Shown in pieces: positions 6,970 to 49,534 of a DNA stretch of 64,000 bases. Each line of letters starts with the position of its first letter. The stretch's first letter is position 1. Below the pieces are notes generated by a model that made no database searches, had not been told where the DNA came from, and worked only from the letters and a program-made list of their open reading frames with translations. The stretch spans positions 1 to 64,000 of the forward strand of contig JAWOEX010000019.1 in NCBI GenBank assembly GCA_046482545.1. Reading direction: 5' to 3'. This stretch comes from Candidatus Thorarchaeota archaeon (GTDB lineage Archaea; Asgardarchaeota; Thorarchaeia; Thorarchaeales; Thorarchaeaceae). The position numbers were made by a program, and so were the translations under genes.

Positions 6970-7992
6970 TCAAGAACTTTGCTCTGCCTTGGCAAATCTC
7001 TGTTGAGCGCTTACTCCAAATTCCAAATCTGGAGCAAAATGGCATTTAACGAGATGTCCGTCACCAACATCACGTAGCTCTGGCTCCTCCTCTTTACAAA
7101 TATCCTTAGCGAATTCACAGCGTGGATGAAAACGACAGCCCTTCGGTGGACTGATAGGAGTCGGCACTTCTCCTTTGAGTATCTGAGCTCGACCTGCATA
7201 TTCGGGGTTAGGTATAGGTACTGCTGACACTAGAGCAAACGAGTATGGATGCAAAGGATTTCTGAAGATGTCTCTGGGAGTCAGTTCCACTATCTGACCC
7301 AGATACATAACGGCGATTCTATCGCTCATATGTTTCACAACTGAAAGATCATGAGAGATGAACATATAGGTCAGATCAAACTCTTTCTGCAAATCTTTCA
7401 TCAGATTCAAGGATTGCGCCTGAACAGATACGTCAGTGCTAGACGTTGGTTCATCCATGACAATGAAATCAGGATTCAGTGCAAGTGCCCTAGCTATACA
7501 AATCCTCTGACGCTGGCCACCACTAAACTCGTGAGGAAATCGATTCAGGTGGTCTTCTGTTAGACCCACCTTTCGGAGCAGCTCGAGCACCATGTCTCGC
7601 ATCTTTGGTCCCCGTGCGATACCATTCACAACAAGAGGTTCACCAACGGAATTCTTTATGGTAACGCGGGGGTCAAGTGAAGCCATAGGATCTTGGAAGA
7701 CAATACCCATCTTGCTTCTAAGCTTACGCAAATCTCTTCCGGAGATGTGAGTTATGTCTTCACCTTGAAATATGATTTTGCCTCCGGTCGGCTCAATGAG
7801 ACGCAACATCGTTCTTCCAAGTGTGGTCTTTCCACAGCCTGATTCACCAACAAGACCCATGGTCTCTCCTTTCTTTATCTCAAAGGAAACACCATCGACC
7901 GCGTGAACTTGGCCTACAACAGAACGGAAAACACCGCCTGTTAGGGGGAAATACTTTTCGAGGTCTTCGACTTCAATGAGTGTTTCAGTCAT
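6970..7992 (-). CDS. oppF: Oligopeptide ABC transporter ATP-binding protein OppF/AppF
   Basis: [31 protein letters not shown]; start taken at MTETL, 2 nt after the upstream stop. Confidence 0.9.
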
Positions 7993-7993
7993 T

Positions 7994-9166
7994 CTATTTC
8001 TCCTCCTGTTGGTCTTCCAAAGGATGATGACAAGCAACCCAGTGGTCAGGTCCAAGTTCCCGAAGCTCTGGTTTCTCTTGTCTACAAATTTCAGTAGCAT
8101 AGTCACATCGAGGGTGAAAACGACATCCCGGCGGTGGCTCAATCAGATTTGGAACTGTTCCTGAAATCTGAGGTAGTCTTTCACGATCTTCGTGGAGCTT
8201 AGGAATCGCCTTCAGGAGCCCGGTTGTATAAGGATGAAGAGGATTCTCAAAAAGCTCTTTTGTGCTGGCGGTTTCAACGGTATTGCCAGCATACATAACG
8301 GTAACCCAGTCACAGGTTTCGGCCACGACACCCAAGTCGTGAGTTATTATGATGATGGAAGATCCAATCTCTTTCTTGAGATCATTGAGCAAATCGAGCA
8401 CTTGAGCCTGAACCGTGACATCAAGCGCTGTAGTAGCTTCATCGGCAATGAGGATGCTCGGATTGCATGATATAGCCATAGCAATAAGTGCTCTCTGACG
8501 CATCCCACCAGAAAGCTCATGGGGGTATTGATTAGCCACTTTTTCAGGGCTCGGTATTCTTACTATCTCTAGTATCCTAATGGCTTCTCTCTTTGCAGCC
8601 TTCTTGGCATCCTTTTCATCCGGTTCTGGAGGGTCATCTAGCTGCGATTCATAATGTTCTATTTTCGCTTTGATTTCAGAGCGCCTCTCATCTGGAATGT
8701 CGCCCTCAAGAGCTTCCTCTAAATTCTCGATCTTCATTTCCAGAACATCGCGTGAAAGGTCCTGATGCAGGTTGACTACTTCGGCTATCTGGTCGCCTAT
8801 TCGAAAGACTGGATTCGGAAAAGTTGCCGGGTCCTGAAATACAATAGCAATCCTTCTACCGCGGATTTTAAGCATTTCATCGCTAGCGAGGTCAAGAATA
8901 GGTATCTCTGTTATTTCTCCCGTTTCCTTATCTTTGTCGTAGAACCGCACTGAACCTTCTTCGATTACGCCAGGCGCTTCCACAATCCGGAGAATGGATC
9001 GTGCAGTAACCGATTTTCCACAGCCAGTTTCGCCCACAAGTCCCATGGTATCTCCCCTTCTCAGGAACATCTCAACACCATCTAGAGCTTTTACGACTCC
9101 TTCGTATGTATAGAAATTGGTCTTCAGATTACGAACTTCAAGTACTAGGTCATGAGGTGTCGTCAT
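7994..9166 (-). CDS. oppD: Oligopeptide ABC transporter ATP-binding protein OppD/DppD
   Basis: GETGCGKS, LSGGMRQR, IADEATTALD; ~50-aa helical insertion. Confidence 0.9.
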   Translation of the reverse strand: MTTPHDLVLEVRNLKTNFYTYEGVVKALDGVEMFLRRGDTMGLVGETGCGKSVTARSILRIVEAPGVIEEGSVRFYDKDKETGEITEIPILDLASDEMLKIRGRRIAIVFQDPATFPNPVFRIGDQIAEVVNLHQDLSRDVLEMKIENLEEALEGDIPDERRSEIKAKIEHYESQLDDPPEPDEKDAKKAAKREAIRILEIVRIPSPEKVANQYPHELSGGMRQRALIAMAISCNPSILIADEATTALDVTVQAQVLDLLNDLKKEIGSSIIIITHDLGVVAETCDWVTVMYAGNTVETASTKELFENPLHPYTTGLLKAIPKLHEDRERLPQISGTVPNLIEPPPGCRFHPRCDYATEICRQEKPELRELGPDHWVACHHPLEDQQEEK

Positions 9167-14855: not shown

Positions 14856-15128
14856 TATAACCTGTCTCTTACAGCTGTAGCAACTGCTTGAAACTTCTGT
14901 GTTCCGCCCTTCTTCTGCCAGCGTTACCGCCCCCAAGATACCCGTAGGCCCTTGAGTCAGCAGGGGCTTCGGCCGCGTGCTTCGTGACAGAACACTAGCC
15001 CCCTTCTCTAGTCCTGCTGGGACGAAGTTCCGTACTGAGCCTAACAAACTCCCCTCGTCTGTGGTCAGGAAAGGAGTTGCAGGAAATCTTACACTGCTCT
15101 ACCCTGGTTGTTTAGGATTCTGTAAGCT
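14856..15128 (-). mobile_element. Structured non-coding repeat element, copy A (short form, ~273 bp)
   Basis: Reverse complement aligns to both ends of copies B and C but lacks their 266-nt internal module; flanked by degenerate direct repeats at 14839-14855 and 15128-15143. Confidence 0.85.
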
Positions 15129-15293
15129 CTTGGTTATTCAGGAAACCTACATTTAATATTGTTAAGGTGATAGCTCTGTGTTAGAATACCCAAATGTGAA
15201 GTAGGTATCTTGGTCGTAGAAACCTAACTTCACAGCAAGGGACAGAATAGAAGTTAACAAAAGTATTAGATTGTTCGAAGATGGAGGTTTACT

Positions 15294-29212: not shown

Positions 29213-30340
29213 ATGTCAACAGGTCAGACCCTTCAAACCCAGATTCATGTTGACCCGGTCCAAGGTAAGAAAGATATCAGGCTTTTTACCCCGCCGGGCA
29301 TCCTTATCGAATCTCGTAGATATCCTACTGTTATAGCCAGCGTATTGGCATCATCATCCCCCTCCGAGCATATAGCTCTCTTTAATCATCCGGAGTCCTG
29401 GGAAGGACTCGACAAAACTACTATTCTCTCGATGAGGAGACGCTTGTATCGCTTGCAGATTCCCCTCAATGCCAGACGTATGGAACCATATGAAGCCGTG
29501 CACAAACTCCACCAGATAGCCCTGAGTGTCTCGCCTGTCGCAGTAGAGATAAGAAGTCAGGGCCTTCCTCATTCTAACTTAGTTACAAACCCGGGACAAC
29601 TACCATGTGGGACAGAAGTTCCTGCTGAATCACTTGAAATCATATCAAATACAGAAACCAGCAGAGTCGCAAAAACAATAACCGAGAAAGATATTCCCGC
29701 TGCACAGGGAGTTTGGCAACTACTTGAATACGACTATTCACTTGATCAAGCGGCACGTCTCATGGCGGTAGGTCTTCTCGGGAAGATTGGAAACCGAAGA
29801 ATCATCACAACCCGTGGGGCATACAAAGCGGCAATTGATGCTTTCATTGGCCGAACAATAATTGAGCTAGCTGAAAGACCGTTGGCAAATAGAAGAACAG
29901 TATTCTCTGCCAACTTGTTCAACGACGATTTCACTGTGTTCCTACAGCCAGGTGAGCCAGCAGTTGACTACGTGAGAATGGATATCAGGCCATCGGGCAC
30001 AAGTCAAGGATATTCATTTGAGCGAGAAAATGGTTCCGCTTCTGATGCCAAGTCCTCACTTTACGCTGACCATGCCCGATACTCAGCTTACAGGCATCTC
30101 TTAGCAAATCAGCTGAAAGCACATATTACGATTTTTCACTGCTCCAAAACACCTAGGAATAATCTTCTGGGTCCATGGATTGCTAGAGCTGGTGTGGAGA
30201 AAGCGCTTTCATCAGGACCCAGACGTGTAGGTACGGGTCAATCGGATTCAGATCTTCTCAACGGAATCCTTTCACCAAACTTGAAAAAATGGACTCACTC
30301 GCTTCCGTTCAAGAATAGGCAAGTTTTACAAAAATCCTAA
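29213..30340 (+). CDS. Divergent Nre-family (DUF650/651) DNA repair protein
   Basis: TPP.....YP, HPESW, QIALS..PV.VE, GLLG....R.IITTR follow Nre motif order; the stop codon is supplied by repeat copy B. Confidence 0.75.
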   Translation: MSTGQTLQTQIHVDPVQGKKDIRLFTPPGILIESRRYPTVIASVLASSSPSEHIALFNHPESWEGLDKTTILSMRRRLYRLQIPLNARRMEPYEAVHKLHQIALSVSPVAVEIRSQGLPHSNLVTNPGQLPCGTEVPAESLEIISNTETSRVAKTITEKDIPAAQGVWQLLEYDYSLDQAARLMAVGLLGKIGNRRIITTRGAYKAAIDAFIGRTIIELAERPLANRRTVFSANLFNDDFTVFLQPGEPAVDYVRMDIRPSGTSQGYSFERENGSASDAKSSLYADHARYSAYRHLLANQLKAHITIFHCSKTPRNNLLGPWIARAGVEKALSSGPRRVGTGQSDSDLLNGILSPNLKKWTHSLPFKNRQVLQKS

Positions 30341-30875
30341 AGAATCCGAGTGGAAGAGTGTAAACTATCTGTAAGAGTTCCTGTAAGTGCTACTGTGACC
30401 GAGGGCGATAGGACTTTATTAGGCCCAGTAAGAAATTTCGTTTCAGTAGGACTAGGCAAGTGGGCTAGTGGTGTAACACGACGCACGCGGCCGAAAGCTG
30501 CAAGGAAGACTCGTTCTTCTAAACAGAAGTCCCCACTCTCCAAACAAGGGGCCTCATCGAGCTCTGGAGAGTCCGCGGCTGTTCACCTTGTCCGTAATGG
30601 ACCTCCTCAGTTACGGCGACAAGGCTGAGGTGGGTGATCATGACCACGCCGTGGTAAGAACTGTGGAAGACCTCGCTGTCGCCGGGAGTGTGACCCGGAC
30701 AACGACAGGAGACAGAAGCCAGGACCGCAGGAGGAATTCCATTCCGATGAACGCGGACAAAGCCCCTGCTGACTCACGGAGCCACTGGGTAACCTTGGGG
30801 GCGGCGACGCTGGCAGGGGAAGGGTGGAACACAGAAGTTTCATGCAGTTCCTAGAACTGTAAGAAATGGGTTATA
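30324..30875 (+). mobile_element. Structured non-coding repeat element, copy B (long form, ~552 bp)
   Basis: Colinear with copy C over nearly its whole length; flanked by TCAAGAATAGGCAAG (30309-30323) and TCAAGAAAAGGAGG (30876-30889). Confidence 0.88.
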
Positions 30876-34866: not shown

Positions 34867-34962
34867 ATGCGTTTCGATGAAGATTGGGACGAAGACGAAG
34901 ACTGGGACGAAGACGACGATTGGGACGAAGACGAAGACTGGGACGAAGACGACGATTGGTAA
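34867..34962 (+). CDS. Candidate 31-aa hyperacidic (DWDEDE)n microprotein
   Basis: MRFDEDWDEDEDWDEDDDWDEDEDWDEDDDW*; SD AGGTGA at 34851-34856. Confidence 0.6.
   Translation: MRFDEDWDEDEDWDEDDDWDEDEDWDEDDDW
34882..34959 (+). repeat. 18-bp tandem repeat (perfect 36-bp higher-order duplication)
   Basis: GA(T/C)TGGGACGAAGACGA(A/C) x4 plus partial unit. Confidence 0.95.
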
Positions 34963-35058
34963 ACATCTCCCAGTAATGAATCTAAGTCTCGCGTCCAAGT
35001 GAGATATTGAAAAATGATTGTGAGCCTTGATTTTTTGGCTCACAATCCTCTGTTGTCT

Positions 35059-47729: not shown

Positions 47730-49534
47730 TCACGGCAATTCGGTCTTTTCTTCATAGATTTCAGGCAGGAAATAGGTTCCAATAATGGCAACTGCTATCA
47801 TTATGGCTATCACAACTGTAAGTCCCGGGAGATTATAGGGGGAAAGGCAAAACCCCCAACTGCTGGTCCAATTAGCATACCAGAGCCGAAGAAAATGCTA
47901 TGCACTCCCATGGTAGCACCCCGTGTTTCTTCCTCAGACACATCGGTAAGATAAGCCATGGATGCTGGTGGTATATACCAGCGAGATATCCAAGAGCTGG
48001 TAGAAGCGGCCATTTCGACCAAAGTGCGCTGATATTATCAGAATTTGCTAGCAGCAGATATGCAAGCACACCAAAACCCAAGAGACCGCTAATAATGAAT
48101 GGCCGACGTTTTTTCAAGCAATCGGATAGATACCCATGGCGATGATGCCCAGAAGCAAGGCTCTTCTAAGCATTCCGAACAGAATTATGAACTCGATGGC
48201 TGTGATGTAGAATTCGCTTTCGATAATACGCTGAGCATATCCAATGAGAAGACCGTACATTGAAATGATTGGCACGTAGAATAGTATCATCTTCTGAATT
48301 CTGCGGTCACTAGCTACTTCTTTTACAAGATCTGAAACACTCATTTGGACTTGAATATCCGTTCGGGTTTCCGAAAACCCGATATTTGCTATGAGTCCGC
48401 TAATAAGACAGGCTTAACCTGTAATTCCCAGAATGAGAACCGGCATGAAACCAAACTCCAGCAGAATGGCTCCCATTCCATAACCACTGATGAGCCCCAT
48501 CAGTGTTGAAAGATTGTAATAGCTCATGAGATTTGCCCCATTGTCCTTCGCTGACATGTCTCGTATCATAGATAGGGCTGTTGACCCCTCCCAAGCGGCT
48601 CCTAAACCAAAGATGACTGATGCAATCAAAAGAATTGGGACGTTCGGAGTAAAAGCAAAGCTAAGTGCAGCAAATCCCGTTATGAAGAGGCTTGTAATCA
48701 GAATGGGGTTTCTTCCGATTTTGTCACTATATGATCCGAAGAATGAGACTGACGTCAATTCTGCTACGGGATAGACTAGCATTACTGCTGCTATCTCCAG
48801 CACATGTGTTCCTCCACCCATGTATGAAGAACTCTGGAGTGCTCGGAATTTTACAAAATCCTAAATAAATCGGCACATAGAAGTGTAAGATTTCTGTAAG
48901 ATGTGACGTGAACCGATGGACCCGTCCAAAACGGTGTGTTTACCTTCTCTCTTCTCGAGCACTAGGGGGCTCTATTCCCTGCAGTACGAAACAACTCTAC
49001 AGTAGGACTAGGCAAGTGGGCTAGTGCTCTGTCACGAAGCACGCGGCCGAAACCCTAAGAGAAGACTCTGCTTCTCGACGGAAGTCCTCACTCTCCATAC
49101 AGGACCTTCATTCAAGGTCCGGAGAGTCCGCGGCTGTTCACCATGTCCAGACGGACCTCCTCAGCGGCGGCGACAAAGCTGAGTCGGGTGATCATGACCA
49201 CGCCGTGGCAAGCACTGTGGAAGACCTCGCTGTTGCCGGGAGTGATGACCCGGGATGACGACAGGAGAAGGAAGCCAGGACCGCGGGAGGAATCCCATTC
49301 CGGTGAACCCGGACGAAGCCCGTGCTGACTCAAGGGTCTACGGGTATCTTGGGGGCGGCGGCGCTGGCAGGGGAAGGGTGGAACACAGAAATTTCATGCA
49401 GTGTACGCAACTGTAAGAAACAGGTAATGTGAATTACTGCGATACTGATGTAGAAGGATGCCCGTACTATGATAGTGAATGTGTAAAGTGCAATGAGATT
49501 CAGGGTATGTTCTGAGGATTTAAGGCCTCTTCAT
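47730..49534 (-). pseudogene. MFS transporter pseudogene interrupted by repeat copy C, with several frameshifts
   Basis: TM1 (LNLIALYTFTIIVRASFYISIAVI) lies at 49430-49520; the rest (QSSSYM..GSYSDKIGR; DVSEEETRGATMG) lies at 47730-48840 in several frames. Confidence 0.85.
48849..49429 (+). mobile_element. Structured non-coding repeat element, copy C (long form, ~581 bp)
   Basis: Colinear with B; inserted inside the MFS gene; degenerate flanking repeats at 48835-48848 and 49430-49443. Confidence 0.9.

Follow-up and report, generated by a model that had tools for sequence, protein, structure and literature searches.

Does a short repeated element lying within a host gene of a Candidatus Thorarchaeota archaeon encode a folded RNA, and if so, to which system does this RNA belong? 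The locus (48990-49420) was found in the window, by which we mean the whole 64,000-nt stretch of contig JAWOEX010000019.1 that was analysed, and a sequence-only reading had proposed that selection acts there on RNA structure, on one strand, in a molecule resembling a ribozyme or a ribonucleoprotein (RNP) scaffold. The region sits within a repeat that is present three times in the window: copy A (14856-15137, minus strand) is internally deleted, lacks 266 nt of the RNA and has a TCCTGA duplication; copy B (30315-30875, plus strand) is a full-length gene-less element with an intact TTTATTA box and a TCAAGA duplication (30309-14, 30876-81); copy C (48839-49427, plus strand), also gene-less, holds the locus itself. 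The deletion junction of copy A, which lies at a short microhomology, recurs identically at a different locus of the same genome (G000 C22:210907-211210). Across this genome there are ~70 copies, and ~100 element pieces, including 74 right ends and 54 left ends, make up 1.2% of the DNA. Within the family, 55 of 86 genomes contain the RNA body, and a DNA-level search of 201 genomes of the phylum returned no matches outside one family.

The folded RNA is real and well supported, and the earlier observation is largely confirmed. The copy set comprised 196 full-length copies, on average 70% identical. So that prediction and test would not be circular, we derived the structure from 42 copies of the genome itself and then tested it in 147 sequences belonging to other genera or to metagenomes. 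On the tree branches of the 147 sequences, 360 double changes from one Watson–Crick pair to another were counted, compared with 20–43 when the pairing partners were slid by 1–3 columns; 45 of 129 pairs underwent three or more such events (2–5 in the slid controls), and 20 of the 21 column pairs with eight or more compensatory events fell inside the structure. The helices named by the sequence-only reading, fixed beforehand and counted in 82 sequences, of which 80 came from other genomes or from metagenomes, were 88% paired and contained 369 double-change cells, against 114 after shuffling and 51–111 after sliding; RNAalifold, which that reading had suggested as a check, found a double change in 63 of 93 pairs. 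Single-sequence folding gave no signal on either strand, one copy being no better than shuffles (z −0.93), and a strict family-wise APC-G test against a conservative, rate-weighted tree null of our own passed 1–2 pairs. We judged the APC-G test underpowered and relied on the register-controlled event counts instead; the evidence for the fold is the summed, register-specific compensation.

The motifs originally quoted for the fold are all present in the copies, on the minus strand in A and on the plus strand in B and C, and differ in their worth. A GNRA loop had been named as retained, and at 49358-49361 it is kept in 193 of 196 copies, one of the three exceptions being copy C itself, which reads GCGG. 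The UNCG tetraloop did not hold up as a family trait, cUNCGg being found in just 34 of 196 copies (16 of 42 from the genome itself), nor did the G-C to C-G swap in the terminal hairpin, as this pair lies beside the triloop and is mismatched about as often as it is paired (5 C-G, 5 G-C and at least 9 G-A or C-A). The proposed helix CTGTGG:CCGCGG is 85% paired with zero double changes, and CTGTG (49215-19) with CACAG (49384-88) reaches 99.5% pairing, four of its five pairs showing double changes.

The functional strand had been chosen by its tolerance of G-U pairs, and this choice was upheld in counts made on pairs predicted from the minus strand, where G-U numbered 1174 vs. 441 A-C (76 pairs vs. 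18). As the G-U excess persists although the pairs were predicted from the other strand, the plus strand is functional and the excess is not an artefact of the folding rules. The preference for single-stranded RNA over DNA cruciforms is supported as well, the G-U and GNRA patterns being unexplained by DNA hairpins. Pairing in single-stranded DNA that an HUH (Y1) transposase would read, the arrangement known from IS200/IS605, was weighed on the same evidence: the genome does have one Y1 transposase gene, and TnpB, which is linked to this RNA (see below), is common in such elements, but the G-U bias runs over 20 helices and 425 nt, GNRA loops are present, the elements have a 6-bp target duplication, which Y1 elements do not make, and the sole Y1 gene sits outside the elements. 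On the last two counts IS200/IS605 was rejected, and we regard a single-stranded DNA function as extremely unlikely.

In copy C the RNA is laid out on the plus strand in four domains. The first (49004-49088) is a junction with two stem-loops, closed by the helix 49004-09/49083-88, and its start corresponds in the parent elements to the tnpB codons for GLGKW; the second (49090-49127) is an ACTCTCC/GGAGAGT stem with an inner variable stem and is 97% paired. The third (49128-49208), a multi-way junction with hairpins at 49145-56 and 49157-86, contains the strongest compensatory pairs (49169-49174, 49146-49155 and 49147-49154) and a second GNRA loop (49170-49173), kept in 186 of 196 copies. The fourth (49215-49388) is closed by CTGTG/CACAG and has hairpins at 49226-67 and 49289-49301, followed by a junction (49319-73) which combines a variable stem-loop with the GNRA loop at 49358-61. 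Downstream lie the terminal hairpin and the right end (49391-49427), with the motif TGTAAGA and the terminal bases GGTAA, where the family has GGTTA or GGTCA; the loop motif of the family, GTTCACTCA, is lost in all three window copies. One lineage (L048, L049, L158, L159 and L161) has the right end TGTCAGA in place of TGTAAGA, with the 5' arm of the terminal hairpin changed to match.

The position of the RNA points to its partner. A tnpB gene lies directly upstream in 104 of the 196 full copies, and the RNA, on the sense strand, overlaps the 3' end of tnpB and ends with the right end of the transposon; the tnpB reading frame extends 259–330 nt or more into the RNA. Six tnpB genes above the Pfam cut-off, intact or near-intact, lie against the RNA in this genome; five of them are intact (544–623 aa), each overlapping the RNA, and a broken tnpB was found inside one 1.8-kb copy. 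The protein matches PF07282, the RuvC triad and the Zn finger were both found, and D243, D438 and the rearranged-site E404 are invariant in 10 of 10 sequences; the rearranged RuvC site (RIIr) is as described in PMC10691335. TnpB is thus most likely the partner of the RNA, and in this sense the expectation of an RNP scaffold was right. We conclude, with a probability of about 85%, that the RNA serves the TnpB nuclease of a Thorarchaeota aCas1-TnpB transposon as its omega RNA (reRNA) scaffold, and that a non-autonomous mini-element carries it here. The element class is already known, and the RNA is not a new ribozyme.

The other half of the original suggestion, a ribozyme, found no support. A self-splicing or self-cleaving RNA, group I intron or IStron-like, might remove the element from host mRNA, as could be thought from its ~430 nt, multi-way junctions and GNRA loops and from the several copies within genes. 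Insertions within genes show no preference for the sense orientation, however (three sense and four antisense, one mis-paired row having been removed), and copy C too is antisense; the RNA body has no Rfam match at the gathering score or at E up to 10, and the left end lies outside the structured part. Group I introns have a U at the end of the 5' flank and a G at the intron end, whereas here both the 5' flank and the element end in A. The position at the tnpB 3' end and at the right end explains the RNA without catalysis, and we consider a ribozyme very unlikely. The Rfam covariance models of HEARO and sotRNA did not match the RNA either.

The TnpB frame is open for ~100 codons into the RNA (tnpB 3' ends L074-L153), with indels in multiples of three, i.e. 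dual coding. The conservation could then reflect the C-terminal coding tail of TnpB and common ancestry rather than RNA structure, a view which the open frame with its triplet indels and the z of −0.93 for a single folded copy would suit. No third-position codon periodicity was found in the overlap, though, the compensation continues past the stop codon (49319-73), and register-specific changes between Watson–Crick pairs run about tenfold above the slid controls; this alternative is already largely refuted and we give it next to no weight.

The omega RNA assignment gains its genomic setting from complete parents in the same genome, of 8.2 kb and 8.3 kb, which have inverted end motifs, 6/6 duplications and the same ends as the gene-less copies. 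For example, copy C (48851-48902) and the intact 8.2-kb element on contig C20 agree in their left ends at 52 of 52 positions. The fold, its strand and position, these shared ends, the 6-bp TCNNGA duplication and the intact parents are direct observations. The parents carry a divergent giant gene encoding 1400–1960 aa, which adjoins 44 of 70 tnpB loci, and relatives of the protein linked to the RNA carry the label Ca. Thorarchaeota. Pfam and PDB sequence searches with this protein gave no matches and Foldseek was weak (E 0.1), but for a model of the N-terminus (pLDDT 89) the 12 top structural hits were all Cas1 or casposase chains (Z 9.1–12.7), the best having Z 12.7, rmsd 4.0 and 178 aligned residues, casposase 6opm scoring Z 11.0 and the next unrelated chain Z 6.9. 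Residues E95, H185 and D195 are invariant, and we take their spacing to be that of Cas1. From the modelled fold and the motif alone, the N-terminus likely has a Cas1 fold. Behind the Cas1 domain, the giant proteins P0001, P0003 and P0004 (G000 C28, C23) have a PD-(D/E)xK-like motif and more than 1000 residues that do not match Pfam.

Insertion duplicates a 6-bp target, TCNNGA, as seen from the flanking hexamers, which were the same on both sides (6/6) in 19 of 32 elements, the central dinucleotide agreeing in 23 compared with 4.5 by permutation. Copy C lies antisense within an interrupted and decaying MFS-type transporter gene (47730-49534, minus strand, outer limits approximate), the empty site of which is preserved in two genomes of the same genus (G077 and G078) as open frames of more than 430 codons with an MFS motif-A-like GSYSDKIGRR; these two genomes have a single colinear TCTGGA, whilst copy C is preceded by TCTGGA (48833-48838) and followed by TGTGAA (49428-33), a right duplication decayed to 4/6. 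The empty site of copy B was looked for in relatives, where the flanks are too diverged. The left end of copy C (48839-48905) has a subterminal TTACA motif, which inverts the TGTAAGA of the right end, and carries TGTAAGA itself twice as a direct repeat (48884-48890 and 48895-48901), and upstream of the first RNA helix lies TCTATTC (48971-48977), a decayed TATA-like box and putative promoter. Mutations affect the box, the GNRA loop, the right end and the duplication of copy C, which is probably a decaying gene-less derivative and likely dead. The covariation is a record of selection on its active ancestors.

The gene-less elements have the ends of the autonomous element and many dispersed copies, but no gene. 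TTTATTA or a close variant precedes the first helix by 33 nt in most gene-less copies of this genome, and the AT-rich box keeps the same place (−33 to −27 from the first helix) in gene-less copies of different genomes, where the upstream sequences clearly differ; the strict TATA-like pattern was found in 20 of 37 own-genome copies and in 0 of 104 tnpB-linked copies. Selection on pairing was also visible within tnpB-free clades, 34 of which appear on a poorly resolved tree, with a G-U/A-C ratio of 3.0 and a paired/unpaired rate of 0.42 on internal branches and a weaker signal (1.7 and 0.68) on terminal branches, as expected if many copies decay after insertion. The recurrence of the box in different upstream sequences suggests that guide-only elements may have been selected to express their own RNA.

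We propose that the giant Cas1-fold protein of the parents would act in trans on the TGTAAGA repeats at the ends of the mini-elements and so mobilise them, and that the AT-rich box ~33 nt upstream would let a mini-element transcribe the RNA itself. The transcript would read through the right end into the flank, which would become the guide; TnpB, supplied in trans, would bind the scaffold and cut the element-free allele, and repair from the occupied allele would then retain or spread the element. The TnpB biology behind these steps is described in PMC10055086 and PMC13565253, and the proposal fits the AT-rich boxes of the gene-less copies and the selection on pairing in tnpB-free clades.

For copy C the predicted guide is the right duplication with the adjoining host flank (49428-49445, plus strand), a role assigned by analogy with TnpB systems; conservation stops at GGTTA/GGTCA, and free variable sequence starts directly after it. 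The duplicated 6 bp would form the start of such a guide, in contrast to the scarless IS605 or IS607. At three bases before the target hexamer T was found in 0 of 45 left ends (13.2 expected), the preference there being otherwise weak; the usual right end has T at −3, and a few copies end in GGTTATA. The exclusion of T is possibly a candidate TAM or a preference of the integrase itself. The segment before GTTCACTCA is suggested as a possible guide in the main text of PMC10691335. In our copies this segment is semi-conserved, and 58 of 86 variants pair better with the right end downstream of them than with other right ends. Searched within the element, it had no target (best matches 10.65 vs. 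10.43 for shuffles), and the segment after GTTCACTCA had none in the promoter or left end of its element (11.7 vs. 11.6 shuffled). As these matches equal those of shuffles, we rejected a guide located before or right after GTTCACTCA that would target the promoter or left end of the same element.

In other lineages (L116, L106, L112, L115 and L139), the first 9–11 bases of the right flank recur 1.8–8.3 kb upstream, hinting at longer target duplications with putative ends. Three unrelated loci (L036, L037 and L150) have a common 16-nt right flank resembling a tRNA T-arm and diverge thereafter, and two tnpB elements (L018 and L093) end beside the 3' end of an antisense tRNA; these tRNA-like flanks are possibly fixed guides or a sign of tRNA targeting. 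Among 49 right ends, AA is far commoner than TT as the target centre, though TCNNGA is palindromic.

Copies that are nearest relatives share the central dinucleotide of the target in 18 of 49 right ends, compared with 8.0 by permutation (p 0.0002), which might reflect a carried core, targeting specific to each paralogue or a short seed in the guide. On the last of these meanings, the long RNA would also join TnpB and the giant aCas1 in one complex, the first guide bases biasing Cas1 integration; if true, nature would have an RNA-assisted Cas1 transposon that belongs to neither the Tn7 nor the IS110 family and acquires a new guide with every jump. A complex of this kind would fit the four domains and unusual length of the RNA, and also a weak extra likeness of the left end to the target beyond 6 bp (84 vs. 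71 matches, p 0.027). Sister flanks, however, show no extra likeness past 6 bp (p 0.25–0.3), palindromic TCNNGA targets are typical of protein read-out, a copy without 266 nt of the RNA still has a perfect duplication, and the dinucleotide is explicable by different aCas1 paralogues in the genome or by a carried core. We consider an RNA-assisted integration improbable.

Transposons pairing aCas1 with TnpB have been described as the groups Cas1H-Asgard-1 and -2 by Altae-Tran et al. 2023 (PMC10691335), whose main text reports flanking repeats and GTTCACTCA after tnpB. The present elements share with these groups the Asgard host, a tnpB beside a gene of Cas1 fold, the flanking repeats and a conserved region with GTTCACTCA after tnpB, which we found within two mismatches in 141 of 192 family copies. 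The main text of that paper is silent on RNA structure and length, on a target duplication and on gene-less derivatives; to a group described there from proteins and a short motif, our analysis adds the RNA, the ends, the target motif and gene-less satellites, and the proposed transposase role of the Asgard aCas1 and the guide position of TnpB become directly testable. A literature search for publications combining TnpB and Thorarchaeota found none.

With the omega RNAs or reRNAs of ISDra2, ISGst and Sulfolobus TnpB7, the RNA shares the sense overlap with the tnpB 3' end, a covarying structure, and a scaffold ending at the right end with the variable flank as guide. The omega RNA of ISDra2 measures roughly 150–250 nt; unlike it and the TnpB7 RNA, the RNA here has ~425 nt in four domains and no Rfam entry or model matches it. 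To our knowledge, an omega RNA of this size and make-up would rank among the largest TnpB scaffolds known. A mapped archaeal reRNA, that of TnpB7, has ~176 nt (PMC11043419), and as our RNA is more than twice that length, parts of it may serve something other than TnpB.

Standalone omega RNAs acting in trans are known (PMC10055086; PMC10691335). Like these and PATE-like elements, the gene-less copies combine ends and an omega RNA with no gene, in many copies, and would depend on a transposase and TnpB in trans; unlike PATE-like elements, they have a Cas1-type parent, and their lineages differ in upstream sequence with the AT-rich box at the same distance. The partner also differs from those of IS605-type (Y1) and IS607-type (serine TnpA) elements in being Cas1-like and in the 6-bp duplication made on insertion. 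With casposons the elements share a Cas1 fold as the likely integrase, inverted end motifs and target duplication, and they differ in the short duplication, in the 1400–1960 aa fusion with a PD-(D/E)xK-like motif and in carrying TnpB and its RNA; no DNA polymerase gene was seen in the elements. IS607 was rejected as there is no match to the serine recombinase PF00239 in the 98.9% complete genome, and an IS110/IS1111 bridge RNA as there is none to the IS110 recombinase PF02371. No tyrosine recombinase (PF00589) was detected in this 98.9% complete archaeal genome either, which is unusual.

Three further observations concern other DNA. At L001:200-410 (G000 C2 start), an rRNA match starts in protein-coding-like DNA joined to a 16S fragment; this is probably a chimeric assembly, and the protein-coding-like part resembles what we take to be a monomeric isocitrate dehydrogenase. 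The window contains diverged direct repeats ~1 kb apart (families D3 and D7) at 7064-9055, probably adjacent paralogous genes, and an 18-bp tandem repeat at 34876-34965 that encodes acidic DEDWDE units.
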